Shown: positions 5,701 to 64,000 of the stretch, piece by piece
Layout of the letters: every line of letters starts with the position of its first letter
Numbering within the stretch: the stretch's first letter is position 1
Assembly (NCBI GenBank): GCA_918797485.1
Contig: CAKKNE010000003.1
Coordinates: 3,348,001 to 3,412,000, forward strand
Reading direction: 5' to 3'
DNA from: Pelagomonas calceolata
Lineage: Eukaryota
DNA length: 64,000 nt
Translations under genes and position numbers: made by a program
Notes under the pieces: model-generated
What the model was told of the DNA's origin: nothing
The model's database searches: none
Seen by the model: the letters and a program-made list of their open reading frames with translations, nothing else

Positions 5701-7400
5701 GGCAAAAAGCACTATGTAATATTACATGCTGGTGCCAAGGGCGCGCTCTGCTAGGTAATATATATACCGTATGGGATATAAATTAGGGTAATGGGCCAAC
5801 TATTATTGGATACAGATGTACATACCGCGACAGTCGTAGAAACTTGTACCGTAGGTACCGTACGGTACGTCCGGTAGTTCCGTAGGTATTTATACTAGCA
5901 CGCCCTTAGTACCTACGGTACGTCACCAGTGCCGTATTCTGGCATTTCTTTCCTAGTCACGGTTACCGTGACACAGGAGTTGGCTATGTTTCTAGGGTAT
6001 TCCGCGTGCCTAGTATAACTTGAACTCTTGAACACGGCGAGCCTGAGGTATAATTTGAATAGTACTAAGGCCCGTGGGTCACGGTTGTGTGATACCGAGA
6101 CGAGGCAGCTGGCATTCCGTCCTGTTAATCGCAGCTTGGCAGCTTGATTCGAACTGGCGAGCACAGGCTTGAGCGCCACAGTCGGGACTCGGAGGCTCAG
6201 GTCAGAGGCAGCTCAGGTAGCCCCGAAGCATGCCAGAAAACGAAGCCCGGGATGCATACACAACGCACAAAACATGTACAGAAAGGAGGCACGGCGGCCC
6301 GCCTAGTATAAGCTCCGACTGGCAGGGTAAATCACCGTGACCGCACAACCGCGGATCGTGATGTCCCCCGGTTCAAGTTGTGCGGTTCAATCGCTCCGGG
6401 CCCCGGTTCAAGTTGTAGTTACGAGAAGTGAGAGACTGAGTTTTGACCCCCCTCGCGGAGGTTGCTTGATTATCCGAAAACCAGGGACGGGTCGGTCGAA
6501 TTGAACTGGTTCGCTGAGGGACCGATTTCTTTCTTTGCGTCGTAATTTTAATTATGTGTTTTCTTTTAGGCCTGTTCTGAGTCTCTATCATTTTCAAGAA
6601 ATTTGATTCTTCTAGTCTAGACCGCCACCTAGATGGAGGAATCACACTGCGGGTCCGGACCCTTCCACAAACAGTTTCCAACATATTAAGGGTTGCATCG
6701 CGAGGAATAGCATCGCGAGGCCCGGTAAAAAAAAAAAGACAGGATCGCCCCTGGCTTGTCACCTAAAATCGTGGTCACGGTTTAGGAGTGTAAATCTCTT
6801 TCGGGTGTGTTGTTATAGAATCTCTCAATACAGCCGGATGAATCTGTCTCTTCTAGTCCTGGATTGTGTAATGAGGAATTCTTAGCTAGGATAAGGCGTG
6901 CAAGGATGTGAGAGTGTTTCATTTGCAAGCATATGGTGTTCCTTGCCTGTGCTATCCGGTTAAAAATGGGCACGCCTTTCGGTTTTGCCTTGGAAGAAGG
7001 GCAGCCTACATAAGCAGAGATCTACAAGGTGTTCGCAACCGTGCCATGCCGCCTTGCGCAACGCTAGTTCCAAAACACCGGCACCACACACATATATAGC
7101 CAACCCTTTAATTCACATCCCATGGGCCACGAATCAACTGCAGCTGTCGTGACATCGACTCAACGAGTTCGCGGTTGCAGAGCCCAGAAGAGAGGGCAGA
7201 CTTGAGTTATGTGCAGATTCTTGGTCTGTGAAATTTCATGTACAGGAAATCGTCAGCAGCCAATCCCATGGCCATGTTTCATCCACCGGCATATCACCAA
7301 CGCATCATCCATGACTCACACCTTAAGAAAACAAATTTTGCACCGTAATAAGCGTGCCTATTGCCTCATCAGAGCCTACTTGGGGGCTTCCATCAACGCA

Positions 7401-9757
7401 CTAGACGTACTTTTTGAGCTGCGCGAGTTGTTTCTCAAAGAGGGAAAATGCAGTACGATATAGGCTCGTGTCAAGCGTGACAGCAGCATTGAGGCGCTCT
7501 ATTTTGCTTGCATCAACACCAGATGCAGATGTGTTCTGATTATGGGTGTGGACTGCCGCCATGTTCTTAGGTATGGACTTACCAGCCAAAGCAAATGCAA
7601 AGAGCATCATGGATTCTTCAAAGCGCTCAGTAATACCAATGACAGCAAACCATTCCTCCAAATGTTCCTCAACAAACCGTAGATCTGCGACATTAGCAGG
7701 GCCCTCTCTCACGCGGCGGTTTTCGATTGGGTTGATGCGTGTCTCACGGTCACGCTGGCGCCAGGGCACATAATAATTTGTACTCATTTGGTACCAGTCC
7801 TCAGGCACGAGTTGAAGAAAGTGCTCAAGCATAAAATTTCCTTTCTCTTCAGCCCACTGGGCAATGTTCAATGTGCGCATGTATACTGCTCCACGAGATC
7901 CGGCACAACATTGATCCTCAAAACTCACAGCATGGCAATACTTGTGCTCGGACAGGATTCGAGCAACAGGCTCGCGAAGGACCTGGGATGATGAGGGCTA
8001 CGTAGGAGTGAAACATATTGTCGCGCGGGTTACATGCCACATAATATGCACAGGGGGCTTGAGGGTGGCTAGCACAGGCGCCAAATGCAAATGCACCAAA
8101 GAGAACCCCATAAGGATGTTTCGCCTGTTTTTTTACGTCCCAATCTCGCCGTGTGTCTATGTGCAGAGATTGCATCTTGACTTTTGCTCCCGGATGCTGA
8201 CTGTTACGTTGCTTTAGAAGAAAACCTTTCACAAAGAGTTTTTTCACTGAGTTCCCAGCAGCTTTTGGAATATGAAGAAATATGGTAGGCGCATTCCGGT
8301 AGATGGCATCATCAGGTTCCAAGTCTTTCGCTCTCGTCGCTCTTGTTTTTGGTAAGTTAATTCCAGAAAGGTCTTTTATTATGTTGTTCTCTGGTTGTGT
8401 GCTATCATTCTTCACTAACTGCCCACCTCGGTTGCTGAAAAAGTTCGGCAAGCCAATAGGGCCTTGGGTACTCTGGCCAGAAAGTTCTCGAGAATGCAAA
8501 ACCACGCAGTCACGTATGGCACTATACGTCGATGCTTGATCCGCAACGTCCTTGACTATGTTAGGACATGCTGACAACAGTGCTAGCCTGGTTTGCTGCT
8601 CGTCCACATCCACAAAACAGCTCGATGAGACTGGCAGCTTACTGTAACTAACGCCAGAATGAAACAGGGAGGCTCTAAATGCATGTTGGCCTAGCAGCAA
8701 ATCATGCCGTGAAAGAAAGTACAATGCTAAATTCCAGTTAGCCAAGAGTCGATGTGTTGCTGATCCATTTCGCATGACCTACAGCATTATGTGCTGTTAA
8801 TATATTATATATTTGACCAAAATCACACTGCTGGTTGAAAAACCATAGTTTCGACTCTCACCTCCGGAAAGTCTGTTGGTATATCAAATACCCTAGCAAC
8901 TATGTCACCACCGTAAAAGTGACCCTTAGACACTGGAACAAAGGCCACTTGCGGCCCCTGGGAGTCAACTGTCCTAAAAAGACTATGCAAAGACTCACAG
9001 ACAATTGTTTCTACATCAAGAAACAAGATTTTATGGTAGATGTGGAGGCCAATCATCATTGCCCGTATCTTGAGGGTGTGCATGTGCCGTTTAACCACCA
9101 TTGGCCTGCTTTCATGTTCATTTTTCCAGTCTAGCATGCAGGTACCATCCTCTGGCCCACATTCTCCCTCGTAAAATTTGCGTGACCATTGCGTCTTGCG
9201 GGTAGTTACTTCATCTCTATTTGACTCCTCCCAACGCAAATAAGTGGGTTGACCGGTTTCCACAACACTGTCAAAGACTAGCGATGACCACTGTACTGTC
9301 TGTGACTTGCCTCTTGAGTCAGTCACTAGTAGCAGCCCGAATTCTGCTTGCGAGTTTCTAAGACGGACAGACCGACCTGACTTGCATGCTTTTTGTATAG
9401 CTTCCAGACCGACAGCCGAATAGATGACACCTCGCTCTTGCGTAGACAATGAGCGAGTGGATAGCTCATTTGCCAGAACTACCTATATCTCTTGTAGTGG
9501 GCAAAATTGCGTTTGGTATAAGGAATAGTGACCGATTGTATCCATTCCCTTGACAAGGCGCTCTTGTAATGTTTAAATTTGAGATTTGATTCGGTCTTTC
9601 CCGAGTGACGTCGGTGATTGGGCCCGAGTGTCGCTTGAGTATCCGCGGCCTCTACGGTGGCAAGCCATAGGACTGGCAACATACTTACAGACCTTGCGAA
9701 AGCCAAAGATTTCAGCCAGCACCCACACGCATTATTATAGCCAGATGTTATCGCCAT
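7401..9757 (-). CDS. Putative secretory-pathway glycosyltransferase-like plus sulfotransferase (Sulfotransfer_2-like) fusion protein, multi-exon
   Basis: Four consecutive minus-strand ORFs joinable by short introns. Hydrophobic N-terminal stretch; KILFLDVETIVC (DxD-like GT-A motif); FLHIPKAAGNS (5'-PSB motif); VLREPVARILS after splicing (3'-PB-like); GITERFEES. Confidence 0.65.
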
Positions 9758-10595
9758 TTGAGATTCCGATCAAATTACGGGTGGGCCATCTTTTAAGGAG
9801 TGTGTTTTGCAACTCATATGATCTATGATGAGTCAGGCTTAAAAAAAAAATAGAACACCCTGCGGCACCGCGGATACCTGCGGTACAATCTGGTACCTTA
9901 CCGTGGTACTGCTAGTAGGGTTGGAGTTGTTCGTGGTTCAAGTACAAGCTAGTAGGCCCCGGCCCGGCGTGGAAGGGTTACGAAAGAAGCGGGGAATCGG
10001 GAAGTAGCCGAATCATCCGAGTCCCAGGTCCCCTGTGAAATGAAGTAACCATGCCAGTGGCGCATTTTGGGGAACTCAGAGGCTCAGGCTGTAATAAGCC
10101 CGCGTCGCCCGAGAAAAGAAATACTTTTTTGTCCTCGGAGGTCAAGGGCAGCTGTTTGTTGCGACTCAGGCCAAATGACTCGTGGGGAATGAGGAAATGG
10201 GGAGTGCCGATCGATGGCCTGAATTGACGAAAAGTCACGCCTAGAGGTCTTCAGAAACATAAACAGCGGAAGGAGTAGCTTCGAGATCCTCATCCACTTA
10301 TATGCGCTGGCCAGGGGCGGCCTCACCTCACCTTAGTACCTTTGTTTTCTTCGTGGGAAATTTCTGGGTTGAAGCTAAAAACGGGGAAATGCCCCTTACT
10401 CTTCACTTGGCTCCAGAGTTCACGCGGTTCCACCTGCTCTTTTTCATAGACTTCGAGTGAGTCAAGGGCTATAGCAAGCGGCGCCAAATTCTGGATTGAT
10501 ATGTCAGCTTTTCATGAAGGAGGTACTCTCTTTGACAATTTTTTTTGGGTTTCGCCGATAGCCGCGATCTTCTTCGCCCTGCATAATGTCCTAAT

Positions 10596-11933
10596 CTAAG
10601 GTATATATTTACCCTCGAAACGCACCTCACCATCCGCAAAATCTTTATCCCATCTGGTCCAGTCCTGGATCCCCGACATTTTTTGGGCAAGGCGGTGACA
10701 TTTAATGTAATCAAGCGTAGCTCCAGGGACATTTGTAGCTATTGCATCGAAGTCACCAGACATAAGGGCATGGCGTATCTTGCTAGAACAACACGACTCA
10801 AGCTCAACAGAGAGCAAGGCGTTATCCTCGACCACATGCGCGACGTTTCGCCATCTGTTCCCCATTTGCCTCAGCAGGCGCTTATGCTCTTGAGGACGGC
10901 AAATAGTGATGCATTCATGCCCCGCGTCCTTAAGCTCGCCAAGATTTAGCTGCAATAATTGATCAGGCGCCACTAATAGGACAAAGCGAACTGGTGCCAT
11001 AAGATCCGGAAAGCGTTGCTCAAAGAGTTGACGAATGTGATCAAGTGTACTTAAATAGTCTAAGACTCTGCGCCGGGTAATCTCCCAGCTATCAACTGTG
11101 AGCCAGGGAGACCCACCAACAGCAGCCCGCACCATCGCAAGGCGATGCCGCGGAGTGATTATCTCTTGCGGTCGTGTTCGACATCTTTGCCTTACATCTG
11201 TGGCATGTTTTGGCACCAACAGGCCGCCAAGCACAGAAAATCTTGTGCGCTCTTCCAAGAATTGCCGCGCAATGACAAAATGACGCAGATGCATTTTGTG
11301 AATTGGATTGTATTTTCCTCGGCCCACCAAGACAACCTTTGGTCGACTACTTTTAGTAACGTGAAGTTCAGCTACACGTTGCGCCAGATGATGGCAGACA
11401 TTTTCAATCACGGGCACACCAGTGTTGGGTGTTTTACGCGAATAATTATTCTTGTTGCTTTTTTTTATTGCGGTAATAGTCACTGGTGGTTTGATGTTTG
11501 CAGGAGGATTTTCACCCTGATCTGCAGCTAGAACATGAGCTACTTCGTTGGAATTAAGGGACCACCTGTGTGCTGATAGGCCGTTACTCTTCTTATTCTT
11601 CTTACTTTGGTGCGAGTATTGCTCTTTGAAGAGTCTGATCACACTTTTTCGGAAGTCAGTAACGGCCTGCCTCGAGGACGACCCGCCAGATTGCTCCAGT
11701 TTCAACACAACGTCTCGTGCAGTCGGGTTTTTTTCTGCAAGCAGCCGATGAATATGTCGTGCATCAACCTCGTGCAGTACCTCATCTGTCACAAGTCGCT
11801 GCATCGCCTCTGCAACGGAAAATCCCAAGCTCTGTATGAATGCATTTTCGACTTGACCCATGGGGGAGTTGAAAGAAGCTACCGGGTGCGGTTTATTGAA
11901 CATGGTCCCAGCATTATCACTATACATAATCAT
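10596..11933 (-). CDS. NMNAT-like nucleotidyltransferase (HxGH superfamily) domain protein with N-terminal extension
   Basis: 445-aa ORF with VVLVGRGKYNPIHKMH, HRLAMVRAAV..SPWLTVDSWE and SSKIR, matching the NMNAT-family layout. Confidence 0.7.
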   Translation of the reverse strand: MIMYSDNAGTMFNKPHPVASFNSPMGQVENAFIQSLGFSVAEAMQRLVTDEVLHEVDARHIHRLLAEKNPTARDVVLKLEQSGGSSSRQAVTDFRKSVIRLFKEQYSHQSKKNKKSNGLSAHRWSLNSNEVAHVLAADQGENPPANIKPPVTITAIKKSNKNNYSRKTPNTGVPVIENVCHHLAQRVAELHVTKSSRPKVVLVGRGKYNPIHKMHLRHFVIARQFLEERTRFSVLGGLLVPKHATDVRQRCRTRPQEIITPRHRLAMVRAAVGGSPWLTVDSWEITRRRVLDYLSTLDHIRQLFEQRFPDLMAPVRFVLLVAPDQLLQLNLGELKDAGHECITICRPQEHKRLLRQMGNRWRNVAHVVEDNALLSVELESCCSSKIRHALMSGDFDAIATNVPGATLDYIKCHRLAQKMSGIQDWTRWDKDFADGEVRFEGKYIP

Positions 11934-12196
11934 TAACTACAGATGTGTGGCCTACTAGCTGCACATTGGCGACAAAGGTTGAGTCTTCTGCTTTGGAGCT
12001 GGGATTCACGCGGCGACAGTACAAAGTGTTAAGTTAGCGGATCCTGCTTGGGTTACTTGGGTTATGTAGTAATGTATCAATGTATCTACGTCAGGGTCGC
12101 CGCGACCGGCCGGGGGCGCGGTAACGACCTACCTTTCTCAGCCGAGAGTCGTCCTACGTGTCTCAAAGGTGGCGGAGAAGGACTAACGGCCGCACA

Positions 12197-12304
12197 CTCA
12201 GGCTCCGAGTCCGAGTCACTGGCACTGGCAGGCCTCAGGCTGTTGAGATGACTCGGAACCGTGACTTGAACGGGTACCTCAGTCTCCGAGTCCGAGTCAG
12301 GCTG
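12197..12304. repeat. Cluster of rule-generated octamers (XY-C-rc(XY)-G-XY), tandem and nested
   Basis: CTCAGGCT 12197, TCCGAGTC 12204 and 12210, CACTGGCA 12217 and 12223, CTCAGGCT 12234, GACTCGGA 12250, ACCGTGAC 12258 nested inside AACTTGAA. Confidence 0.85.
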
Positions 12305-12394
12305 AATATGAATATTAGTGGTTTAAAAGGGCAGATAGTGTACCTTTTCCTTAGCTACTATCTGCCTCCGAAGGCGCCACTTCGCGGTACAAAG

Positions 12395-15300
12395 ATGACC
12401 TCGCCTTTAGAGCAGGCCGATGATGGAGGGGGGTTAACTATATCGTCGATGGTCAAAGAATTCCAAGGGCTCAAAGACAAATTTAAGCGCGAGGACGCTG
12501 ACTCGCGTGAGTTGTCGGTCTATATATATTTTGAGTTATTGTCTCCTTACAGCTTCTCCCTTCTCCGACCTTGAAAAGGCGACGGTACTGCAAGAGTGCC
12601 GTGTTTTTTCAGACTCTAAGGTTGTGACTGAGTCGCCACGCAAGTGTTCTCAGCTTATCACTAAGTTACTGCACATAGTGACTCAGGGTGATGCCATGTC
12701 ATCCTCTGAGGTGACTGAGGTCTTCTTTGGTGTTACTAAGCTTTTCCAATCCAGCGACGCTTCCCTTCGTCGAATGATATATTTCTTCATAAAAGAGGCA
12801 ACGCTCTCTAGTATGTCATTTGCATACTGTTGTTGCCTAGGTGGCCGAAACGTGTAACCCTGACGACATAATTATAGTGACCTCTTCTTTGACTAAGGAC
12901 ATGAATTCAAAGGAAGATTTGTTTCGTGCGAATTCAATCCGTGTACTTGCTAAAATGTGCGTGAGTTATTCTATAATGAGGGATACCAAGTTGGAGTAGG
13001 ATTGATGCTACCATGCTTGGTGCAATTGAAAGGTACATCAAACAGGCTATTGTAGACAGAAATGCGATGGTATCCTCGTCTGCTCTTGTTGCAGGTAAGC
13101 ACTTGCTTCCACTTCCACTTCCAGTAACACGGATATGACCAGGCACACATTTGATACGCGGGTCACCTGATGTTGTCAGGAGATGGGTAAACGAAGTACA
13201 GGAGGCCTTACATTCATCCTCGGATATGGTCCAATTTCATGCACTTTCCCTCTTATATGAGATCAAGCAACATGATCGCCTTGCGATATCTAAACTAGTT
13301 ACGAAGTTGACAAGGGGAACAATTTCAAGTCCCCTGGCAACGTGTCTTTTGATCCGGTACATTACTACCATTGTGCGCGATTCTGGCGGGAATGCCTTGG
13401 CAAGCGCAACAGGCCGCGCTGCATACCAATTTCTGGAGTTATCCCTGCGTCACCGCTCTGAGGCAGTAATTTATGAGGCCGCTAAAGCGCTTTGCAACTT
13501 ACCCGGAATAGAAGAGCGCGATCTCGGCCCGGCTGTGGCTGTCTTGCAGCTTTTCCTGTCTTCCCCAAAGTCCACGCTTCGGCTTGCAGCGATGCGAGCT
13601 CTTTCTAGTGTTGCAATAGCCAAACCATCAGCAGTCATAAAATGTAATGACGACATGGAGTCGCTCATCGCCGATAATAATCGCTCTATTGCAACTTTTG
13701 CAATTACGACTTTATTAAAAACTGGTTCTGAATCATCTGTTGATCGTCTAATGAAACAAATTTCGTCATTTATGAATGAAATAGCAGACGAGTTCAAGAT
13801 TGTTGTCGTCACTGCGATTCGGGAGCTTTGTCTCAAATACCCTTTAAAGCACCGTGTCCTTGTTGGATTTCTTGCCAATTTTCTGCGCGAGGAAGGGGGT
13901 TTTGAATTTAAGAAAGCGATTGTTGACGCCATTATTGCTCTCATGTGCGTAATATCCGAGACCAAAGAGTCGTCGCTTTTTCATCTTTGTGAGTTCATTG
14001 AAGATTGCGAGTTCACTGCGTTGTCGACACAGATTTTGCATCTTGTTGGTATCGTGGGGCCCACAACCGTTGCACCTGCAAGATATATTCGTTTTGTCTA
14101 CAATCGTGTCATACTTGAGAATGCAGCTGTGCGTGCAGCAGCAATTACCACTCTCGCTAAGTTTGCTGCAAGACTCCCAGCATTACAAGCATCTGTGTCC
14201 GTGCTGTTACGTCGTTCACTGCGTGATGAGGACGACGAAGTCCGTGATCGTGCTACAGTCGCTCTAAGATTGCTCGGAGAGAACATTACAAAAGATGCTC
14301 CTGGCGACGGCGAGGCAGAAGGCAGCCAACGGCCCTTCAGGCAAGATGCGTTGGCAGCGGACAGTACAAGAGATCTGCCACTTCAACCAGAAATTCACTT
14401 GCTTCTTGAACCGCTGCCAATGTCTTTTGCACAGCTCTCTGCCGCACTGAAAGAGTTTGAGGTTGCAGGTAGTCGTGAAGATGATGCCCTCGCACTCAGC
14501 CTCACAACTTTGCCTGTAGTCGATTACACGAGGCCGAGCTCTCAATCAGCGGTTTGTATTCGTCGTGTACCTTCAGCATAGTGAATCTGAGTAGGTGCCA
14601 GCTAGTGCATCGCTGTCCTCGTCAAATGACTCCGCTGAGTTGTATAAAATTCCTGAACTTGCTACTTTGGGGCGTGTTCACTCTTCAACCTCTCCTATCC
14701 AACTGACTGAATCGGAGACTGAGTATGTAGTATCTTGCATCAAACATATTATGTCAGAGCATGTTGTGCTTGAGTTTGCAATTACGAACACGATTTCAGA
14801 TCAATTGCTGGTGGATGCATGTCAAAACTGCAGCGTACGGGGTAAGATGTGATAAATATATGCGCTTGTGCCAGGCATTGTTATTGAGCAGGCACCTGAT
14901 TCACCGCAGCATTATGATCATGTGGCCTCTGTGCATGCCCCCATTTTACGCTGCGGTGCCACCGAACGAGCTTGGCTGATACTGCGAGGGAGTCCTGGCT
15001 CAACGTTTGGTGCCCCTGCTCATTTCCTTGCAGAGCTCAAGTTTCGTGTCGTTGAGATTGATCCAGCCACTGGGGAATTCGAGGGGGATGAAGAAGGGTT
15101 TCCGGAGGATTACCCGCTTGAAGATATAGAAATTTCAACTGCTGATTTCGTTGCGAAGGTGAGACAATGATCCAAAGTTATCCGAGTCTTGGGCCCTAGG
15201 CGGATATAAGCAATTTTCGACAAGCCTGGGATTCACTTGAGAAAGATAAAGAAGTGCTTCAAAAGTATTCTCTCCAATTCAAAGACATGGAAGTCGCGAT

Positions 15301-15603
15301 AGATGCTGTGATATCTTGCCTTGGGATGCAGTCATATACGTAGTCTCTGACGTTTTTTTTGCCCTTTTGTTGACACATATTACTATTAAATATATCAGGC
15401 CAGAGGATGGTACGAATGAAATTGATAAAAGCAGGATAGGCATGCCGCATACTCTTCACCTCTCCGGATGTTTTGCAGGGAACCTTGACATACTGGCACG
15501 GGCTCAGCTTCAAGTTGAAGCTAAGTTGGGGTGTATTCTCAAAATCGCTGTGCGCTCACCTCAACTTGAGGTATCTGAGCTAATATCTGATTGCATAAAT
15601 TAA
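12395..15603 (+). CDS. COPG: Coatomer subunit gamma, multi-exon
   Basis: LEKATVLQECRVF, LRRMIYFFIKE, VVRRWVNEVQEA, HLCEFIEDCEF, YIRFVYNRVILENA, LTESETEYVV. Introns include a GC-AG at 12798-12840. Start could be 12395 or 12449. Confidence 0.95.
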
Positions 15604-16204
15604 ATGCAGCCTAGATGACATTCGCATTTCTTGAGCCGCAGAGCGGTGTTGAATATGCATACAACTTACCGTGGCTCACCAATGACAAAATAAGTGCCGA
15701 CAAATTGAGTCGCCGGCTGGCTGCTCCGCTGTCTCAGGGAAACGACTCGACAGCTTTTTATCTGAGTCGCTGAGTGGACTGAGATTGTGAACCAGTAAGA
15801 GCTATTAACATTTTAGATGGACGGCCCCCCACACTAAATAAACTGGCACTGCCAGAAGCCCAAAATCAGGGTGACCGGGGGGATCCCAACCCCGAATTTG
15901 CCGTATCTCTATAACAAGATCAAAACGGGCGATCCGAGTCGAAACGATAGTGTTTAGAAATTTCCGTGCCGTTTCGGGAGACCTAACTGGCACCCCATCG
16001 GGCCTACCTAGCTGGCCATAGATTAGAGCCATAAGTACCGTGACCCCCGGCCGGGCTGAGGGCTCCTGGGAGACCAAATTAGCAGCACGCTGGCCCGGGA
16101 CGTGGCCCGGGCAGAGCGAATTTCTAATTTTTCAGTCCAGAAGCTCAACAAACGACTCGGATGGCTAGGGGTCCGTCCCTGTTATTATTGGTACTGTCAC
16201 GGTA

Positions 16205-16345
16205 CTATATTGTTGGTACTGTACAAGCCTCAGGCTCTAGCCTGAGGCCCGGGCTCCCCTCGGATTTGTGACCCGGGCCCGGGCCGGCCACTGCCAGTGA
16301 GCCAAATTGGCTGTGGTTTAAGTTTGCGGTTCTCAAATTAAATTA
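16205..16345 (-). repeat. Dispersed repeat family A, copy 1 (heavily invaded by octamer words)
   Basis: Reverse complement shares CCACAGCCAATTTGGC, ATCCGAGGGGAGCC and GTACAGTA blocks, in order, with 42861-42925. Confidence 0.7.
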
Positions 16346-16737
16346 GACCCAGTGGCACCCTTGACTCGGACGAAATGAGTTAGTTAATGAGTTTGTTTCG
16401 TGCAAAAATTGTGTGTGTGTCTCAACTTGAATTGAGCCATCATGATCATGATCAAATACACCACTGGCTTTTTCAAGTTCACTGGCAAGTTCAGCTTGAA
16501 GATTTCAACTTGAAGGCCGTTCAAGTTCATGTTCATGATTTATGTGATGCCGCAATACTCCGACCCCTACTCATGCTGGCAACACACTCCGTAGCTTTCG
16601 TGCGCCCCGCGCACGCGTCCTATTTAACACCCAACCCCGATCCCTTCTAGCCCTTATTATATGTCACGGTATCTATACGCAGTACCGTTGGTAAGCCCCC
16701 GGCAGCACACCGCTTGGCAAGAAGCCAAGACACGCTA

Positions 16738-17600
16738 ATGTCCAATGTCGATCTTGAATCAGCGAAGGGTGCATCGTCCAACGATGACACTCGAGGAAAG
16801 CTCAGTACCATGTTGAAAGCCAGAATCCAGGACCTCAAACCATTTCGCGAGGAACTTCAGTGCCGTAAACACTCTAGCAAAGAGAAATTAGCCGAGAAGA
16901 TACCGGAGGTAATTTTTACGGGCGAACTAGTTCACGGAGAAGGATTTCGAGGCACGCAGCTTGGAGTTGCCTGTAGTTGGCACTTTGTGTGGGATGATCC
17001 ATGGACGCTGCTTGAGGTAACCTATCACAATAATTGTAATTCATGGATCGTACGTCAGGGTAATTTCCGAGGACAAACTCAACTCGCCGCTTCAACCGAT
17101 TGCAATGCGCCTTGGAACCATCCGCTTGATATTCATTTTGCAGCACGGTCACCACTTGGCTGGCCGAAGCTTGTAATGCAGGTGCAAGAACTTGACGAGG
17201 TATGTAATAATACACCAGAGATGTTAGAACCATACAGTTATACTTTAGCACGGATGTTCTCACGTCGCGGGTTATGGGTTTTGTCATCTTCCAGTCACAC
17301 CGGGCTCTTCAGAGCTTACTGTTTGCTGCTGGAGACCGACTGGTTCCGTGCGAGACGAGATATCTGCATATTTCCTGGGAAACACATCAAAACTAACAAG
17401 CTATGATATTATCTCGGCCAAGGCTGCCTGGGCAAACCGTTGTCGTCTCGTAACAATTCCTACTGGAAAGGTAGTTTGAATTCAGCTAGCATACAATCAT
17501 TTGTTTTATTTAATAGGTGATTCTGAACCTGAATGTGATATTGAGGAATTTTGAAGGGAATATCGATATGCTCCAGCACTCGCGTGCGCCTCCTGTATGA
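16738..17600 (+). CDS. B9D2: B9 domain-containing protein 2 (ciliary transition zone), 4 exons
   Basis: PEVIFTGEL, W..LE|G..GQTQ, WNHPLDIHFA...GWPKL, VAGYGFCHLP..PG, CWRPTGS; three GT-AG introns restore the frame. Confidence 0.85.
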
Positions 17601-17765
17601 ATTTGGGTTTTGCAAAGCAGGATAATCTCTCCTGTGACTTGAAGCCAAGCCTGAGGTCCGGGCAATTGGCAATTAGTATCCTATCGGCCCGGGTAGTCTA
17701 CCGTAGTAGCAAGGGCAGCGGTGCAATTATAGGACAGACGTGGACAGTGGCAGGCGGGGCTCCTC

Positions 17766-18937
17766 AGGCCTAGGTTGCCACTTACCCCAGGGGTTATTAA
17801 CCCCAATCGCGGCCCGGGGTCAGTAACCCGGGTAATTACCCGTTAGGACGGGTTATTAACCCCAGGATCTTATATCTAGAGGGGTAGGGGAGGCCCGGGA
17901 GGGGGCCTGGGCCGCGCCGGGCCACATGACTTGGTACTTGCCTTGGCGCACCTGTACGTATCCAAAAGCTCAACGGGCTGCTTGCGCCCATCCGCTCGTC
18001 CTGAGGGGTCTTTTGCTAATCTCACTAAAAACGGGTTTAGTCGAAACCCGTTATTGAGCGGGTTATTAACCCCGGATCCCCTCCGAGGGGTAATTAAATA
18101 ATTAAATTAATTAATAAATAAATTAAGGAAGACCTAAAAAAAGGAACAAGCCTAAGAGCCTTCTCCCTGCTCGGTCAGGATACCCAACCGGAGCTTCGAA
18201 ATAGCAATAAGATAACGATACAACGGGTTTTCAATCTCCCGGGGTGTCCCCCATGACCAGCCGACAGCGGTACTCGTCAGTCAATTGCCGTGCGAGGGGG
18301 CAAAAACCGAGTATAATCTCGCAAGAAATGCCTCCCGTTCTTCCTCAAAGGCCTCGCATCCAAACAACGTGTGTTGGATTGTTTCCGACTCGCGAGATTC
18401 GCAACAAGGGCATTGCGCGTTACGAACAAGCTGCATTCGGCAACTCGAGCTCCGGAGGTCGTGGCAACCCAATCGGAACTTCGTCTTCAATCTCCGCCCT
18501 TCCCGAAGAGACGAGGGGCACGTTCTGAGTAAATATTCCGGCAAGCCGAAACGTTCTTTCTCGGCCCAATTGCTCATGTTATGAAGGGTCGTCATTCAAG
18601 TTCTCTTGAAACCGTCGGCGAGCTCGGATACCCGGCGCGAGGCGACGAATTCATTGACGAACTTTTTCGCTGCCGGTTTTTTTAGAGGCCCGGGCCAAAT
18701 CGCTTCTAACGCAAGATTTTCCGGGAACAAAGCCCCGTTCCTCGACGATCCGCGACCTTTAGAATCATTCATCAGGCCGTCGTATACGCGGCGAACGAGG
18801 AAATCCCGAGGGTCCAACGACAAGATGTTGTTGCGGAATTTCAACGCCGCGGCGTTTATACGAGTTGCGACGGACGCGACTATAGGTTAATAACGGGTAA
18901 TTAATTAACTTGAACAGGTAAGTGGCAACCTAGGCCT
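17766..18937. mobile_element. Non-autonomous TIR DNA element with subterminal repeats, carrying a nested LINE fragment
   Basis: Perfect 21-bp inverted repeats AGGCCTAGGTTGCCACTTACC at 17766-17786 and 18917-18937; internal GGGTTATTAACCCC repeats near 17791, 17850 and 18060. The TSD is ambiguous. Confidence 0.8.
18091..18885 (-). mobile_element. 5'-truncated non-LTR retrotransposon (LINE) 3' fragment
   Basis: ORFs 18596-18844 and 18281-18595 are in the same frame and encode KFRLGCHDL...CPCC...ETIQHTLFGC, a C-terminal CCHC zinc-knuckle region typical of non-LTR RT ORFs; followed by a 3' UTR and an AT-rich tail. Confidence 0.8.
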
Positions 18938-19188
18938 ACAGAGCGGGTAAAAGGTATGGACCCCTTCAGGCTTCGCGCTTGGTGAGGGGGATTTTCATAA
19001 ACTAGGTTCCTGGGGTCTATTCCCACCTTTTGACCAAGGTCCGGGGAGAGACGAAACGGCTAGGATCTTGGAATCATAGGTGCTGACATATTAGTGGGAA
19101 TATTAGTAGGATAGTGAATAGTGTATTGAACCGCCGCCATACCGCCATAGCCGCCATAAACGGAGAAATGTAGGCACACCTCGTATTT

Positions 19189-19763
19189 TTAGTACTCGGG
19201 ATCTGGAATATCAGGCACAAATTTTTTTTTCCATTCCCTTCCATGAGTAGTCATTTTCCTATAACAACATGGATCTTGCCGATTAAAACCAGCAGAACAT
19301 ACCATACATAGTAGAATTCGATGATTTCCTTTGTCGACTTCGTCTTGACAAATCGCTGCAGCATGTGAAAGTTTTTTCCATGTAAGGCGAGTGCGCCTAC
19401 CGATGTCGTCGAAATGCTGTATGTGACAAGTGCACACCTTCAAATGTGGCAATTTCGCAAGGAGACCAAGCCTCAAAGACTAATGGTCGACGTGCGGGGG
19501 ATATCATCGCACCCAGTAGAGTAGGCCGCTCAACACGATACTCGTTCTTGGCCTGAGCCACAAATGATTGAGACCCATAGAGAATATGCTTGCCGGGTCG
19601 TTTCCATATTGCCCGTATGCTACGTGTGGAACTATGAGATCGGACACTACGGTCACGTAATCTTCGACCTATGCCGTCGTTTAACCGGCGCATGTAAATC
19701 ACGATCAACCATGCGTGATGTTCGCCAGTGGTGGTGAATGCGGTGCTTTTCCTCATCGTCCAT
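19189..19763 (-). CDS. Small SANT/Myb-like domain protein, multi-exon
   Basis: Spliced reading: FEAWSPCEIATFEG|ALALHGKNFHMLQRFVKTKSTKEIIEFYYVW|KMTTHG. Start codon uncertain. Confidence 0.75.
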
Positions 19764-19920
19764 TGTGTTTTTTTAAGGTACCGTAGGTACCCCCCTAGGG
19801 CGCAGTACGATTTCGAGAGATGCGCGCTTTGTGTTTTGAGGCGTATCTGGGTATTCTACCCCCTCATGTAGCTGCGCTAACCCTAATTAAACTGAATTTT
19901 CAAGACGGCATCGACACCAG

Positions 19921-20530
19921 GCGCCGCGCTGGCAGTGTTCATCCTCGATTTCAAGTTCACTGGCCGCAGGCTTGACTCGGATGCAAGTGCTGCCCTTCAT
20001 GAGATTCGGTCCAATACATGAGGTTCAAAAGAAAATGCGTCATATGATGCAAATTCGATGCTCTGGCGGAGCTGATGCGAAAACCTGCATTCAAGGCACA
20101 GGTGGATACTTTTACAGCAAATGCTGAGGTGGTCGATCAACTTGAAGTAAGTAAGCAAGCACGGTGTTTCCGCTTTCTTAGGAAGCGAACCGCAGCCACT
20201 AACATCGCCCGCTAGTGCTAGTGACGTAAAAGCTCATGCAGCTAGAGCCAAAGTAGACTTCAAGTTCAAGTTGGAGTACAAAAAGTACAGTGCAGAATTC
20301 TCAGGCTCTGGTCAACAGCCCTACAATCACTGGTGAACGCTGCTAGGGATCCTTCACGTCTTGCTGATGCCGTGGCCGATCTCAAAGACCCTGAGATGAT
20401 AAAAAGTGCAAGGGAAATGATGGCTCAGGCTGAGCCGGCATTTCAGGTTGAGATGCAACGGATGATGGAACAGCCTGAAATGCGCAAAGTCGTGGAGGCG
20501 TCACGTTCCTTCGTGAGATGGCAGATATGA
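19921..20530 (+). pseudogene. Frameshifted remnant of a STI1/DP-repeat-like Met-rich helical protein
   Basis: Fragments ELMRKPAFKAQVD and LQSLVNAARDPSRLADAVADLKDPEMIKSAREMM lie in different frames with stops between them, and are interrupted by several +6 octamer words. Confidence 0.55.
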
Positions 20531-21084
20531 ATGCCAGGGCCGGGAACTTGACCCAACCAATCTACTTGACGCGGAAACCTTACTATAATCCGATGTTTCT
20601 CTCAACGTAGAACTGAATCGTCCGCCCCAAGATTAGATTCAGAAGCACACGAGGACGACAGCACATGAGGACGAGATTAGGGGTTCTTATGATCCTGCAC
20701 CTCCGCCTAGCCTACTTGAGGACAACTCGGACCTAAAACTAGGCTACTTGATATATTTGAACAGGCCGTCGACTTTGCTGTGCAAAGCGTTAAACTTTGC
20801 CGAAGCAAAGCGTAATGACGTTCCGTCAGCACGTTGCGCCGCGAGAAATTCAACGTTCCGTTTGGCGAATCGAATGCTCCTCTGAACAAGCGGCGGCAGC
20901 ACAATTAGATTCCCATGGAATTCTTCAAGTTGCAGCTTGAAACAACTCTACTGGCAGCCAGGTGTCTTTGCGATGCCGCCTCAATGAAGTGAATAGAATC
21001 AAGTCCATTTCATTGGGCATCAACAATTTTCAGCAAGCAGGGGGACTTTGATTTCATCATTGGGGTTTCGACGTGAGTGCGGTC

Positions 21085-24000
21085 CTAGCTCGTTCCTTCG
21101 CTTTGGCTGGGCCACCACGCAGGCAGGTACGAGGTGTAATTAAGAGGACAGGACTGCGCAACATCTGCCAGAAGACAAGAATATCGGACCTTTTGAATAG
21201 AGCGCCATGCAGAAAAATCACCAATATGGATATATGTGTTTAAAATAGGACTCCAGTTGTGCAGCAAGATTCTATTGGAGTCATCCTCCGCGGGAGCAGG
21301 TTGACAGGTACCGTATTGTCCCATGTCGTGATCGAAATTGGCGCTGCTAGGATGAGAATTTGTTAAGAATAGACATGCCTTTCCGTGATTCTCATCATAA
21401 GTGAATGTTCGGGCGTTCAGAGTCCCGAGTACGTTGCGATGCTCAGGCTGCTGTTCAGGCTGATGCTCAGGGGACATGTTACCATCATCTATGCAATCTC
21501 TGAGCCCACCCACAGAGGTAGAAAACAAGTCTTGCTCTACCTGTGATTCTCCGTCAGCGCGGTGAGATGCAAATATATTCAATAGACCAATGCGATTCTT
21601 GTAGCTTGCGAAATGATTTTTCACTTGCGTGCCTACCTTCATAGGATTAAGATCTAGTCTAATTTTTTGTTTCGTTTGGCCTACGAGATGTCGAAATGCA
21701 GACTTTCCATTCGAGTTAGGGAGAGGCCTGAGCTCGACCACCGTCGCCGATTGGAGTCTTCTTGTCCTGGCTACACGCACGACTGAAATATTGGTTTTAG
21801 TATTCAAGGGTCTTGGTAATAATTTATCTCCACTTATTATTAGCTTGATGCCTGATCGAGAATACACCCGACTACTTCTCGGCACCAATTGGCACTCTTC
21901 AGGAGCTTCCGACGGCTGAACTTTATTCTCGTCGCAATTTCCTAATGCTTCGGGAGTGGTCTGAGTTTCAACAAATTTGCCATTGAAGACGACTGGTGTG
22001 TACATGGGCGAACAGTATTGCCTCGGTGCAGAGAAAAGTTCGCTAGGTGATGCTTCAAATCTATCATCAGTGTGAGTGCTGGCACAACGCCCTATAAGCG
22101 TGGTCTTTAGATTGCCCTCGGCAATCTGCTTGTGCGCCAAGGCGTGTAGACTTGCATGTTGTTCTAAAGTTGTACACGTCTCAAGCCCTCCCCAACTGGA
22201 ACGACCATTGGCAGTTCGCTCTTGTTGAGGTTTGGGTGTTGGTCGGCCTCCAATCACATGCTTTCCAATGGGTTGAATGGAGAGATGATCGGCCGGCAGG
22301 CGGAAGCAGACAAGATTGCGCTGAAGGTCATATTGTAACTCACCGCCAAAAACTTGCACAGCCTTGGCTGTAACATCCCAGCAGATTCGAACGCCACGAC
22401 GCCTTTGCTGATGCTCACGAAGCAGTGCTTTGTAATTTATAGCATACTTGGTGTCGTAGTAAAGCCGGGCACAGTCACACGCACGCTTGTGCATGAAGAA
22501 AGCGGCAATTTTTCCAAAGCTCTTGGGATACTGCAGAAATTTATCAACAAATATGCATTTCTCCAAGTCAGACCATTGGCGGCTCTGCGAAGAAGTAACT
22601 TCTTCAGCAAGTGGATCGGATATGTGACGGCAACTCAAGGCTGATTCGCGGAGGCGCGTGTCTTCTTGCACAACAACAGATATTGGGAGCGGAAGTGGTA
22701 GGTCGCTTTCATTAATCGAGCCACGCTCAAAACGCGCCTCCTTAGCAGAGGATGCTAAAATTTCAGACATTACACGTTCATGCTCTGAGGTTTCCTCACG
22801 TAGTGCTTTGCGAGCTCTTGTCGGTGCTCCAAGGCTGCCCGCTTCATCACTTTCTACACATGTTATTGTGTGGCCAGAAGCAGTCGACCGCAAAGAGTCG
22901 AGAGAAAAAAGGGATGAGCACGACTCCCCCCTGTGTCTAAACGTACGTTCGTTACGTTTTGTACCTTCAGGTTGGCGGGGAGGGCAAAGAGAAGTATGCC
23001 CCCTTTGATACTCGCGCGCACACAAATTTGCGCGCCATCTTGTCTCTGCATCCTTGTAGTCATTGGCTTGTTGATCCAGGTAGAAGCAGAGCCTTCGCGC
23101 ACGTTTGTGTGCGGCTGCATGTAGAGCTGGGATGAGGGCGGCGTGACTCATTTCATTGGCATGCCAAAGAGGAGACTCGTGAGGCGTTCGGTAAAGGTGT
23201 TTTGGCTCCTGAGTATTCGAAGTAAGAATCCGTTTTTCTCTCACAATTTGCTTCAGGTCATGCACGACTGTTGGAGGAACACGTGAGCAATTTCCGTTGC
23301 TACAAGTAAGTTTGCTCTGCGAGGGGCCAAGAAACGGTTCAGTTTCGTCGGACATCATGCATCCAGGTGCCCTGCGCCAGAGATCCTGCATGTTAAAGAA
23401 AGCCTCCTGGATTAAGGCGTCGAGGCGGCCAAGGCCGTGCTCCAGCGGCATGGTATTGAGATCAACATCAATCATTTGGCTGAGAGCTATGCGCAGTTCC
23501 GCATCTTCTTTTTCGCGATCAGACCGCAGCTTTGCTACACGGCCTGTAAATTGCTGCTTGCCTGTGGCATGAGCAAAGCCGTATGCCGTCAGGTAGGAAT
23601 TGTCAGCAGGCGTTGATGGCGTTGGGAGGCAGTCCATTAGGATGGCTACGGTACTAGTCTCCTCTTGGCTCTTGACTGGTATTAATGTCATGCCGTGAGC
23701 GTTATTGGGGACATTAGTGTTTGTCTCAGTTGTCATAGTTACTTGTTCATGAGCTTGCAGGTTGTATGAGGGAACCTTGGGAGGGCGGTCAGTTCCCCCA
23801 TGAGGTCCACCCAGTGGTGCGTTCCATGTTTGCCGGCGGGCGGCACATTGCTGGTCTGTCCGCCGAATAAATGCAGAAGGTGTTTTTCCTTTAAGGAAGG
23901 CAGTCTGCGATTGCCATGCCTTGTTCGGAGACCCAGCAAGGGAGCCCTTGATTCCACCGGTGGACTGATGCCAGGACACGCTCCCTCCTGAAACATTAGG

Positions 24001-24643: not shown

Positions 24644-24720
24644 CGAGCAGCCTGAGGGAGAAGGCTCTTAGGAGCTTGTTCCTTTTTTTTAGGTCTTCCT
24701 TAATTAATTTATTTATTTAT
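24644..24720 (+). repeat. Short 3'-end copy of the LINE at 18091-18885
   Basis: CGAGCAG[CCTGAG]GGAGAAGGCTCTTAGG..CTTGTTCCTTTTTTTTAGGTCTTCCTTAATT plus an AT-rich tail matches the reverse complement of about 18100-18173. Confidence 0.85.
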
Positions 24721-38818: not shown

Positions 38819-38857
38819 GGCCCGGGACTCCGAGTCGGACTCAGGCTCGGCCCGGGA
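38819..38857. repeat. Six nested/tandem +6 octamer insertions
   Basis: GGCCCGG-GA-C[TC-CGAG-TC]G-GA-[CT-CAGG-CT]-C-[GG-CCCG-GG]-A: 39 bp collapse to GGA after removing six hexamers by the rule. Confidence 0.85.
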
Positions 38858-48574: not shown

Positions 48575-48716
48575 GCCGTCACTGTGACTCGGAGGCTCCT
48601 CAGGGTTTGCCAGCCTGAGTGCCACTGGCAGTGACCGTGACTCTGAGTCGGACTCGGATATCCAAGTCCGACTCGGAGTCGCCGCGGCGGCCGTAGCACA
48701 GCTCCGACTGCCAGTG
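48575..48716. repeat. Octamer-word cluster with nested insertions
   Basis: TGCC[AG-CCTG-AG]TG 48608-48621, TGC[CA-CTGG-CA]GTG 48620-48633, plus ACCGTGAC, GACTCGGA three times, GCCGCGGC and TGCCAGTG. Confidence 0.8.
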
Positions 48717-49445
48717 CGCACCGGCGAGATTCCGTGCGTACACTGGCGAAGGTGGTATCCACCTGTCGCCGGATGATAGGCCCGGGGGGGGGGGGGTCGA
48801 ACTTGAAGTTTGAAGGTGGGACTGGCTTCCCCTAGCCGGAGATCGGTTAGTTCGTTGGAGTAACATTCTGCCTTCGCCTGCGACGCTTAAAACTCTGTGG
48901 AGACCTCGACATTTCTAAGGCCCGGCGGGGGGGTCACCGTGACTCGGACCGGGTCAAGTGCTAAGCCTATTAGCGTAACGTTGATTTTATTTTTTGGCGC
49001 AATGAGCGTACAGCCACGCGCCGGCCGGGTGGCGGCAAATTTTTGCTGAGGCGCAGGTTCCGTATGATAAAATAATGGGCTGTGCAGAGTTTTGTGCAGT
49101 GCGGGCAGCCTCGCGTCGAAAAATCGGCTGTGCCGCGGTAGCGCTGTCGACCTCGAACGCGCGAGCTCTGGAGGCTTGGGGCTCAGCGTCACGGTCAAGT
49201 GATTTTTAAAAGATCGTGCTGGGAGGAAAGCAGAGAATCCCCGCGTTTTTAGACGCTTCGAATAGACGATACGGCCGAAGAGTGCTCGTCAGGTACCGTT
49301 TCTTTCTTTCTTTCCCATGCTCTAGAGCCGCAGTACCCCTTGCAGTACCGGTACCACGGTCCGTCCCCCGTGACTGGCCCCCGGCAGCTCAGGAGCTGCG
49401 GTACTTCGTCCGAGGTTCCCGACCGGGTTGGCTTGCATTGAATCT

Positions 49446-53241: not shown

Positions 53242-53750
53242 CGATTTCGTTTTGGGTAGTGGCCTTTTTACACCATTTTCGAGCATCCAGAGGTCATCAC
53301 GACCTGTATTCGCTACGCTCACAGGTCATCACGACCTCTAAGCTCGAAACAGGCGCAAAAAAAGCCCAACCGAAAAAAATTCAGCATTGACCTTAATTAA
53401 TTAAGTAATCATGCCAGTGATATCAAAAAGAAAATTTGAAAACTGAACGAGCAAAGCGGCGAAGTTCGGTTCCGACTTAAGCCCTCTTACATGCCGTCCA
53501 GGCAAAACCCATACCGTCTCGACCGCCCGGGCCGGGCCGCCCACTGAAGGGCCCGGCACCCAAAGTGAGAGAATACCGTAGCTCTTCCCCTTTCATAGCT
53601 TAAACCCGCAAACTTGCTACGAACATACTTAAGGTAATGACTAATATTCACGCAAAACAGGGGCTGCAAACGGTAGGGGGGTTTGGGGTGCGCCGGCCGC
53701 GGGCAGGCCGCGGGCCGGACGGCGGAGACTCAAAGTTCCAAATCGACGTC

Positions 53751-53825
53751 GTCGTCGTCCGCATCGTCGTCGTCCGCATCGTCGTCGTCCGCATCGTCGT
53801 CGTCCGCATCGTCGTCGTCCGCATC
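53751..53825. repeat. 15-bp tandem repeat, 5 copies (GTCGTCGTCCGCATC)
   Basis: Five perfect copies; reads (DADDD)n on the minus strand. Confidence 0.9.
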
Positions 53826-54643
53826 GACTATAACCCCGCGCCGGTCCCCGGGCCCGTGGTTTCTCGCAGGAGCGCCCTCGAAGCTCTCTATTCGTCCGCG
53901 TCGACTTCGACGCGGCCGCCGCGGTGCAATGAATTCCAGCTTTTCGAGAGTGCTTGAAGTTGTCCGCGGGGCTCGGGGCATACCCACCGTACTGTCCGCA
54001 CCGTTTTTTTTGTGCAGTGGCATGCCCACATCACGTATCGCACATCATGTGGTGGGAGAGCGATTTGGCGCACCGCGAAATGTTGTGCTGCCGCGCTTTT
54101 TCTTGGCGCACCGCCTCGGCCGAATCCTTGAGCGGTCAGAAATAGCTTGGGGCTGCCTATGGGTGCGTTTAGGCCGCGCACGAGGCCAAAACAAAATCAC
54201 GTTTAATCGAGATTCACGGGTTTTTGCCGTTTTTCAGCACGCCGCTGCGCCCTAGTCCCGATCCCCGTACACCCCCCTGACCTCAGGCGGCCCTTAAGAG
54301 GGCCCTATGAGTCCCCCCGACCCAATCCGCGGGTACAGGCTAACGATGGAGCGAATCCCTATGGTGGGTGCCGGCCCCGTGCCCACTGGCACGCCGTCTC
54401 GGCAAAATGAACCATCGATTTAAAACCCGATAGCCTAGTAGTAGTTTTTTTGTGGTTTTATGAAACAACTCCTAAGTACGGGCGCATTGTGACGAGGCAG
54501 GATACTAGTAGTCACACTGGCATCCCCGCTCGCAATGAAGTACGAACTTGTGAACTTCGACTCCGAGCCTGAGTCAGTGCCCTGAAGTTTTCTGACTTGA
54601 GGTGGTCCCAGTTGCTCACCCGGTTGCTCGGGACCTCGCCGCA

Positions 54644-56317: not shown

Positions 56318-57170
56318 TTTCAAGGGCTCGGACAGGATATATCCCAATTCAACTATAAGATTATTTCATAAGATTATTTCACGCAAAAATACCGTCAAAG
56401 CCATATCTTCCCATCCAGCCCCACTAGCCCCACTGCCCCACTTTCTAATATCGGTGTCTATACTGTTGTTCCAACATTCACGCCGACACGGGCAGCACCA
56501 CTGGCAGTAGCCTGAGTGTCTCAGGCTCCCGTCGCAGCCTGAGCCTGAGCCTACTAGCCTCCTGAGGCCGGGACCGTGACCAGGCAGGAGGCATTGCTCG
56601 ACACCCCGGGCTTGCCCGGGTTCAAGTTATGGCCCGGGCCCGGCCCGGGGCCCACAAGGTTCCGCCTACTGACGAAGAGGTTTAGCAAAAGTTAGTAATG
56701 CCAGTGGTTAAAAGCAACAGAAAGAAAGGAACTTGAAGTCGCGGAGCAATTTGAAATCGTCACCGAGACTCGGATCAAGCAATGGAACAAGCCTGAGATG
56801 CCATGAACGGTTTAGTACAATCCTTCAAGTTGCTCTCTAATGAATGACACGGAGAACTTGGCCCTTGAAAATGACATCATCCGGGACTTCGTAGTCAAAG
56901 TTTCATTACACGAGTCGCTCGGCCATCAGACCGGGTCCCGTTCGGGGACGCCACCCCCAAAATTGGTCGCGGCAAGATTATTTGACATAACGTTTTATTG
57001 ACGAGCTTAGCCCGGGCGAAAACACCTCCGTCGAGGAGCGTTTTATCGTCGAGTTCTGGTTCGATCCAGATATTGATGCAACCGGAGCCTGGATGGCCGG
57101 AGACACGGCTATTGGGAGCCGACTTCGGACGGTATACTGTTTCCTGCACTACGTACTGCTTCCCTACGGC

Positions 57171-57218
57171 GCTTGTTCCCTATTTTAGGTCTTCCTTAAT
57201 TTGGTCTTCCTTATTATT
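57171..57218 (+). repeat. Third, shortest 3'-end copy of the LINE
   Basis: GCTTGTTCCCTATTTTAGGTCTTCCTTAATT resembles 24674-24705. Confidence 0.7.
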
Positions 57219-63392: not shown

Positions 63393-63521
63393 GCGCGGTC
63401 ATATCCGTCGCAAGTTGTACTATGTCCAGCGAAGGGTCCAACTAATGCAACTTATCCCCGCCACTGGTGTGTATAAGTGCCAGTGTATATAGGAAGCCTC
63501 AGTTAAAGGGTATAGGATACC

Positions 63522-64000
63522 GGGGGGGGGGGGGGGGGGGGGGGTAATTTCCGAGTCATCCTTTCAAAGTTCCGAGTCAAGTCAACTTGCCAGTGAAATT
63601 GAATCGCACCGTCACCGTCACCGTCACCGTCACCGTCACCGTCACCGGCGTCCGAGTCACGGTGTCAGTGACTCTCGGCGGGCCCAATCGCACCATTGGC
63701 CGTCACCGTGACCGGCGGGCCCCGGGCCCGGCCCGGGGTCCTTGAACTTGAAGTTTTTATGAGCCTGATCATGATAGAAACATTGGAGGTAGAGACTAGT
63801 CGCCCATTCTAATCCTTCGAGCACGTCACGGTCTTATATATGCGTGATTCAAGTTCAAGTTGGATCATGATGTATGAAGTTTCAAGTTCAAGTTCAGACT
63901 GCAGTCACGGTGGCCGCTGCGGGCCCGATCCCACTGCAGGATGTGGCGGCCGCGGTGCGCTCGAAACCTCGGGTGCCCGGGGCCCGAATAGTCACGGTCT
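63522..64000. repeat. Poly-G run, (CACCGT)n microsatellite and dense octamer-word cluster
   Basis: G23 at 63522-63544; six full CACCGT units plus a partial one at 63607-63647; AACT[TG-CCAG-TG]AA 63584-63597; many TTCAAGTT, GTCACGGT, ATCATGAT and GGCCCGGG words. Confidence 0.85.

Follow-up and report, generated by a model that had tools for sequence, protein, structure and literature searches.

Excision footprints of the hAT elements Ac/Ds are documented to carry hairpin-derived P-nucleotides and to be joined at microhomologies, with the flank base's complement at the center of the palindrome and with products that vary (PMC5873905). Elements of the CMCT clade, which has motifs in common with RAG1 (PMC12730594, PMC12810828), mostly have CA..TG ends and 2–5 bp duplications (PMC12730594), CNEST makes a 2-bp duplication at a TA target only (PMC12810828), and Pack-CACTA footprints have been called variable (PMC6379663). 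No footprint is described in the available parts of PMC12730594 and PMC12810828, and those of papers on Chlamydomonas, Cryptococcus KDZ and introners hold no footprint data. The subject here is an octamer vocabulary in a 64-kb stretch of the Pelagomonas calceolata genome (the window), in which a dinucleotide XY is followed by C, its own reverse complement, G and the same dinucleotide again (XY-C-rc(XY)-G-XY; the rule words). In the ocean, P. calceolata ranks among the most abundant eukaryotes. Each word is an exact insertion of six bases, at almost any dinucleotide, and probably the words are the stereotyped excision footprints of a cut-and-paste DNA transposon that has C...G ends and makes a 2-bp duplication. 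The rule was not found in the literature on octamers, on EnSpm/CACTA footprints with hairpins or 2-bp duplications, on pelagophyte elements or on Kyakuja, a scope outside which lay older work on CACTA footprints and the bulk of subscription papers.

One rule behind the intergenic octamers

The rule was proposed in a first-pass annotation of the window, and the vocabulary is real: words given there as examples stand where they were placed (ATCATGAT at 16439, TACTAGTA at 54503 and GCCGCGGC at 48681). The window holds 185 rule words, against 16.0–18.3 expected from Markov models of orders 1–3; order 4 gives 33.9. By gene limits that were estimated from open reading frames (ORFs), 174 of them are in the 23.7 kb of intergenic DNA (9.0 expected), and the 40.1 kb of gene bodies, introns counted in, have 10, which is chance (9.1 expected). 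The enrichment is thus about 20-fold and in non-coding DNA only, and the six added bases, which had been called frame-preserving, have left no visible trace in genes.

Eighty related loci were fetched, most of them short gene-only contigs. L001, L006 and L020 are from the same species, L002–L005 from a sister species (95% amino-acid identity) and L013–L015 from a more distant pelagophyte (77%), all of them, with the window, representing one orthologous and probably centromeric region of low guanine-plus-cytosine (GC) content. Related loci with intergenic DNA are enriched too (in listing order, 52 words against 4.8 expected, 21–33 against 2.3–2.8, and 28 against 4.9); L006 is identical to L001, and the gene-only L005 has no words. 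The same rule is therefore seen in three pelagophyte lineages, the window species and two others. L011 and the Aureococcus-like L016, with two words each in 2.4 and 2.1 kb of non-coding DNA, are too short for a call. A pooled non-coding set of 32.2 kb (window, L004 and L015) contains 221 rule words, 10.2 being expected.

When canonical octamers of the whole window are ranked, six word pairs built on non-self-complementary dinucleotides take rank 1 and ranks 3–7. The expectation that all 16 words would be top outliers held for 12; the words of the self-complementary dinucleotides are much rarer (AT 7, GC 7, TA 3 and CG 1 in the window; ATCATGAT and GCCGCGGC 7 each, TACTAGTA 3 and CGCCGGCG 1). 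Per 1000 dinucleotides of the pooled set, non-self-complementary targets have 4.9–11.6 words, AT 4.7, GC 3.9, TA 2.5 and CG 0.9, the CG words being near chance (2 against 1.0 expected). Of the two controls that had been suggested, the one with free middle bases (XY-C-NN-G-XY) gave rc(XY) as the most frequent middle, out of 16 that are possible, for 15 of the 16 dinucleotides, CG being the exception. The other, XY-G-rc(XY)-C-XY, occurs 53 times in the window, partly as rotations of tandem copies, and 19 times, against 9.1 expected, once the rule words are collapsed to XY. In the pooled set the form XY-rc(XY)-XY, without C and G, is only 1.27-fold enriched, and variant rules (duplications of 1 bp, 3 bp or more, inserts of CA..TG or CC..GG form, XY-CG-XY) are at chance level or have three to four cases. 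After collapse the commonest complex octamer in the intergenic DNA of the window, L004 and L015 is GGCTGCCC/GGGCAGCC, with 12 occurrences.

The words are clustered, with 78 gaps of 30 bp or less between them compared with 32 at random, and nine neighboring pairs are spaced by exactly 6 bp. Their density is greatest upstream of genes: spacers between tandem genes have 11.3 words per kb in their 5′ halves and 3.1 in their 3′ halves, and convergent spacers have 4.7 per kb. The suggestion that repeated cycles have written much of the intergenic DNA is on average an overstatement, since the 185 recognizable events make up 4.7% of it. Local exceptions exist, as scars account for 72 of 108 bp at 12197–12304 and for 36 of 39 bp at 38819–38857.

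Empty and filled sites, nesting and decay

That the words arose as exact insertions of C-rc(XY)-G-XY was foreseen in the first-pass annotation and is borne out by comparison of haplotypes and of repeat copies, in which an empty allele XY faces a filled allele XY-C-rc(XY)-G-XY. XY is single in the empty and double in the filled alleles for AG, TC, AA/TT, CA/TG, GA, CC/GG, AC and TA, and the second XY is presumably a target-site duplication. All-against-all alignment of the related sequences gave 12 distinct 6-bp indels. Five are exact rule insertions, two of which lie between haplotypes (window 17864 against L001, and L013 against L015); of the other seven, one is a plain duplication and six lie within alignments of at most 75% identity. 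At 17864–17865 the window has the empty AG, and haplotype L001 (position 14710) has the exact filled allele AG-CCTG-AG. At 5954–5955 a single TA in the window corresponds in L001 to TA-CTAG-TA plus three further bases. Within the window, the CA and AC words at 32936–32954 are missing from the other copy of their repeat at 43825–43920, and reciprocally the CC/GG word at 43885–43892 is missing from the copy at 32885–32985; repeated GT and TT words at 24511–24544 are lacking in the L014 and L015 copies of the repeat that holds them.

In a 430-bp repeat common to the window (43965–44379) and L015, all six words are copy-specific, two of them at different TG sites seven bases apart. The window copy has a TT/AA word at 44004 and a CA/TG word at 44041 (together 44004–44048) that the L015 copy lacks; four further words, at other dinucleotides, belong to the L015 copy alone. 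Removal of the words raises the alignment score from 486 to 546 (mean 409 and maximum 470 for 30 random removals). Collapse improves all eight word-bearing repeat pairs, two long pairs having been left out of this test, and in six of the eight the gain beats all 30 random removals. For haplotype pairs the score drops on collapse, as expected if most words are shared. A strict ungapped search for empty sites returned seven of 273 words, four of which are self-overlaps of tandem units and three real. As a separate matter, this non-coding repeat (window 43965–44379, L015:12811–13213, L013:4093–4376) is 82% identical across two pelagophytes while gamma-COP coding DNA is only about 73% identical; horizontal transfer or constraint may account for the excess, and no terminal inverted repeats are seen.

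Repeated cycles, also proposed at first pass, are evident from nesting. When the six bases that follow XY are taken out, another rule word appears over the joint for 17 of the 185 words; the mean in a chimeric control (n=2000) is 4.0 and the maximum 12. The effect peaks at a deletion length of 6, other lengths giving 0–8 and length 12 giving 10. At four inner positions taken together, variants with one mismatch are about 34 more than chance would give, which amounts to about 4% decay per site. This fits words of which most are fixed and a few remain polymorphic, as is observed.

The words are not a product of sequencing or assembly, a reading to which we give practically no weight. Much of 5000–24999 is covered, with few differences, by contigs of three marine metagenome runs (X4, X7 and X12), each from a different outside study; run X1, which may be the source sample, is not counted among them. 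The 12 rows taken from a table of 64 indels in the contigs all come from high-copy repeats. The separately assembled loci L001 and L020 also bear the words, genes are spared, and related species have different words at different sites.

A parallel set of Tc1-like scars

A second vocabulary, TA-CCG-TA/TA-CGG-TA, occurs 16 times in the pooled non-coding set (2.6 expected) and 20 times in the window, where it is chained at 5846–5876. L001:15753–18031 is a TA-flanked element of 2.3 kb with short inverted ends, the right one being CGG, at a position where the window has an empty TA (19788–19789). It contains a Tc1-like transposase frame of 422 amino acids with a frame break before it, and its ends fit the TACCGTA/TACGGTA words. 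This match indicates that excision scars do accumulate in the region.

A hairpin model for the rule words

A model of how the words arise has to account for three things: the 2-base duplication, the same two bases in inverted copy, and a C and a G that never vary. The simplest source of the C and G would be an element that sits as XY-[C...G]-XY. Its transposase would nick the non-transferred strand one base inside each end, and attack on the opposite strand at the border would leave a flank hairpin XY-C-rc(XY) with the terminal C of the element at its apex. Host enzymes would open both hairpins, whereupon the exposed rc(XY) of one end would always pair with the exposed XY of the other, a 2-base microhomology guaranteed by the duplication itself, and fill-in would give one dominant product. 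This guaranteed microhomology would explain why the scars are so uniform. A hairpin that retains the terminal base, as the first-pass annotation proposed, yields XY-C-rc(XY)-G-XY exactly.

The flanks are instructive. At 112 of 239 sites there is neither a C before nor a G after the word, so the flank is not the source of the C and G, and neither template switching nor a 4-bp hAT-type target can be their general cause. The model further predicts that sites that have rc(XY)-C on their left or G-rc(XY) on their right would have a 5-base hairpin microhomology and form the scar more readily. Such extensions are present on 26 of 470 sides, a threefold excess over the 8.6 expected (p about 1e-6); of the control bases, A and T give 5 each, and G gives 17, these being partial tandem words. 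In the L013/L015 polymorphism the extension is already there in the empty L013 allele. Excision through flank hairpins would fit both the inverted dinucleotide and this flank excess.

Several points weigh against a transposon footprint of this kind. The flank excess could in part be made of decayed nested words. By-products of +3, predicted at self-complementary sites, are specific for TA only (2.04 against 0.97 in the control) and weakly for AT, and overall are hardly distinct (1.39 against 1.33), so that the deficit of words at self-complementary targets is only partly explained. The true terminal base of the element depends on the model. Hairpin footprints in print are heterogeneous, and the Ac/Ds apex is complementary to a flank base, with no fixed C (PMC5873905). 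No transposon accumulation was seen in the low-GC regions of P. calceolata, according to PMC9481584. The recommended search for elements with terminal inverted repeats (TIRs), run on the window and six related loci, yielded no convincing intact XY-C...G-XY element, its scans giving only weak 13–14 bp candidates and one pair from the tail of a long interspersed nuclear element (LINE). Likewise no CMC, KDZ or hAT transposase was recognized among 24 + 10 + 109 frames of the window and related loci. In the P. calceolata annotation (14,639 of 16,667 rows, repeats masked) there is a single transposase, which is Tc1-like, and none of these rows has PF02992, PF13960, PF18758, PF18759, PF05699 or PF10551. 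The absence of element and transposase is weak evidence, covering only the window, its related loci and a masked annotation.

Four sequences were considered as the element and set aside. One, at 17768–18935, resembles a miniature inverted-repeat transposable element, but its ends are ambiguous (TA, GC or CTAG flanks), and its TIR pattern has 17 viral matches with no other likeness to the window. It is a high-copy sequence with inverted ends of about 20 bp and depth up to about 35-fold, and holds an 881-bp insertion missing in L001; part of this insertion is a 3′ LINE fragment whose tail is (ATTT)-like. The small inverted-repeat element at 43154–43522 has an 8-bp, hAT-like, duplication instead of 2 bp, and for that at 24741–24868 a 7-bp duplication is likelier than 2 bp. 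The family at 18106, 24700 (24655–24720) and 57180 (57168–57202) is a LINE tail (zf-RVT, E 0.0028), seen also in L015. Elsewhere, none of 120 viral contigs reached the enrichment threshold, and among the best 25 of 178 viral contigs none has the vocabulary clearly above control words. Prokaryote genomes gave no matches for two patterns and viral contigs none for the LINE tail; an Rfam search found no match, and an atlas search with a scar-rich frame no usable one.

Other origins for the words

Repair of host breaks without any transposon could in principle yield the same 2-bp duplication at any dinucleotide: a 2-nt staggered break of the Spo11/topoisomerase VI type would be filled in, receive a non-templated C, fold into a hairpin or snap-back, and be joined. 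Breaks of this type are often upstream of genes, which is where the words are densest, and SPO11/TopoVI-A and Ku protein are annotated in P. calceolata; such an origin would also account for the failure to find an element. We nevertheless regard it as unlikely. For it, both ends would have to receive the same non-templated C every time, and a one-base-loop hairpin would have to form without a transesterase; other apex pairs are not likewise enriched (A..T 1.8, T..A 0.45), and the region is probably recombination-poor (PMC9481584). The footprints of other transposons are less probable again. Tc1-like, hAT-like and introner elements are all found in the genome of P. calceolata, and hAT chemistry on a 4-bp target W-XY-Z, where W and Z are complementary to the apex bases, would produce this word at C-XY-G; a C before the word is indeed slightly enriched (150 against 120.7 of 470 sides). 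The many sites that lack a flanking C or G, several empty alleles included, do not suit such a target, hAT-type grammars for 3–10 bp duplications are at chance or have one or two cases, and Tc1 scars are TA-specific and not inverted.

Least favored among the biological alternatives, and quite improbable in our view, are transcription-factor or chromatin motifs under selection and replication template switching with slippage. Concentration upstream of genes is what regulatory motifs would show, and slippage could also produce neighbors exactly 6 bp apart. Transcription-factor motifs would be fixed, position-conserved words, whereas all six words of the shared repeat are copy-specific and some words are polymorphic, exact +6 insertions. 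Furthermore, nesting wrecks older words, one rule spans 12–15 unrelated words, and the flank is no template for C and G. A motif origin is thus refuted by the empty/filled pairs, though the words may have gained a regulatory use later.

Clusters along the window and the genomic setting

All the clusters named at first pass were recovered. Upstream of the kinase gene there are nine words at 5950–6420. The densest nested cluster, 12197–12304, is in the divergent promoter of a cytidylyltransferase-like gene and gamma-COP; ten words are visible, and 12 collapsible events shrink its 108 bp to 36. About 22 words precede the B9 gene at 15930–16670 (14 of them at 16230–16545), with tandem re-hits and nested words at 16276 and 16480. 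The cluster upstream of the SANT-domain gene extends over 24246–24660 and has ten words at 24280–24640. Four words are visible in the 39 bp of 38819–38857, from which six successive removals by the rule leave GGA. In the divergent spacer of the ankyrin and MCM2 genes (48575–48950), eight words are at 48575–48716, where collapse reduces 142 bp to 76. About 17 words are upstream of the PH-kinase gene (56490–56835; 13 at 56490–56780) and 19 upstream of the last gene of the window (63478–64000; 18 at 63550–64000). Within the last of these is a (CACCGT) array of 6.8 units (63607–63647), akin to the AC/GT word of the rule, and at 53749–53826 a 15-bp unit is repeated 5.2 times; scars may act as seeds of microsatellites.

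The gene order of the window (kinase, cytidylyltransferase-like, gamma-COP, B9, SANT, PA14/filamin, CFAP43, Gcd10) is that of Pca_3p18730–18850 in the chromosome 3 annotation of P. calceolata (PMC9481584 Supplementary Data 2), the SANT match resting on a reading of the ORF. The window gamma-COP groups with Aureococcus (clade support 100/99). The genome has a GC content of 63%, with one gene-rich region of about 259 kb and 52% GC per chromosome that is held from Hi-C to be centromeric (PMC9481584), and a bioRxiv preprint (10.1101/2024.10.30.620910) agrees on the low-GC regions. The GC content of the window is 50%, and it is probably in the low-GC centromeric region of chromosome 3.

Other features of this DNA deserve mention. 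Perfect tandem duplications of 8 bp (5 against 0.8 expected) and 9 bp (3 against 0.1) are above chance in non-coding DNA, at 6131, 12047, 12071, 19133, 41423, 48469 and 56417, and are possibly scars of hAT or Mutator type. A dispersed repeat family common with the sister species (window 39100–39450 and 48860–49150; L004:7009–7103 and 8709–9098) is 74–87% identical and has no protein family match. At 16207–16369 and 19797–20534 blocks are swapped for unrelated sequence relative to the same-species L001, the surrounding DNA being 98.5–99% identical.

What the scars would mean

If the words are scars, a rule of one line allows past excisions to be counted, ordered and undone where the elements are gone and repeat masking sees little. 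It would also predict the cleavage geometry of a transposase with a 2-bp duplication, namely a nick one base inside the end and a flank hairpin with an element base at its apex; no footprint data for such a transposase were found in print. Promoter-like motifs of pelagophytes could then be mutational scars, regions said to be free of transposon accumulation would have had heavy traffic, and the levels of decay and polymorphism suggest a usable clock. A bolder picture, which we offer tentatively and think more doubtful than not, is of an unrecognized transposase or domesticated host enzyme that combines a Tc1-like cut with RAG/hAT-like flank hairpins, an ongoing mutator by which promoter DNA would grow in six-base steps within the low-GC, gene-rich centromeric regions. 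The scar would be deterministic and reversible in silico, the nested scars would be an ordered record of transposon traffic invisible to repeat annotation, and the words may have been recruited as promoter vocabulary.

Comparison with known systems

The duplication made by Ac/Ds is 8 bp, and the empty/filled pairs here duplicate two bases only; nor is the apex the complement of the adjacent flank base, being C/G whatever the flank. What is shared with Ac/Ds is that flank bases recur inverted at the joint, that microhomology guides the repair and that few products dominate (PMC5873905). Against the many product types of Ac/Ds (PMC5873905), the rule words have a 2-bp duplication, an apex that is always C and one dominant product. 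Tc1/mariner footprints resemble the words in the 2-bp duplication, in the terminal element bases left behind and in their accumulation in non-coding DNA. They differ in being at TA only and in having no inverted flank bases, whereas the words are at almost any dinucleotide, with TA among the rarest targets, and the two bases at their middle follow the target as rc(XY) instead of being a fixed insert. In RAG coding joints off-centre opening of a hairpin gives a short inverted copy of the flank with no element base at the apex. The inverted copy is common to both, and the element base at the apex proposed here is not.

The CMCT elements (EnSpm/CACTA, Mirage, Chapaev, Transib, Plavaka, ESTA) share C...G termini and short duplications with the proposed source (PMC12730594, PMC12810828), and a duplication of 2–5 bp at a variable target is what is found here, if the doubled XY is a target-site duplication. 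Unlike them, the words are known without an element or transposase, and CNEST is restricted to TA where the words take almost any dinucleotide. Membership in CMC/EnSpm is unproven; as a best guess, about as apt to be wrong as right, the element belongs to the CMCT clade (EnSpm/Mirage-like). Judged by analogy with these systems, the words appear to work like a hairpin-type excision footprint.

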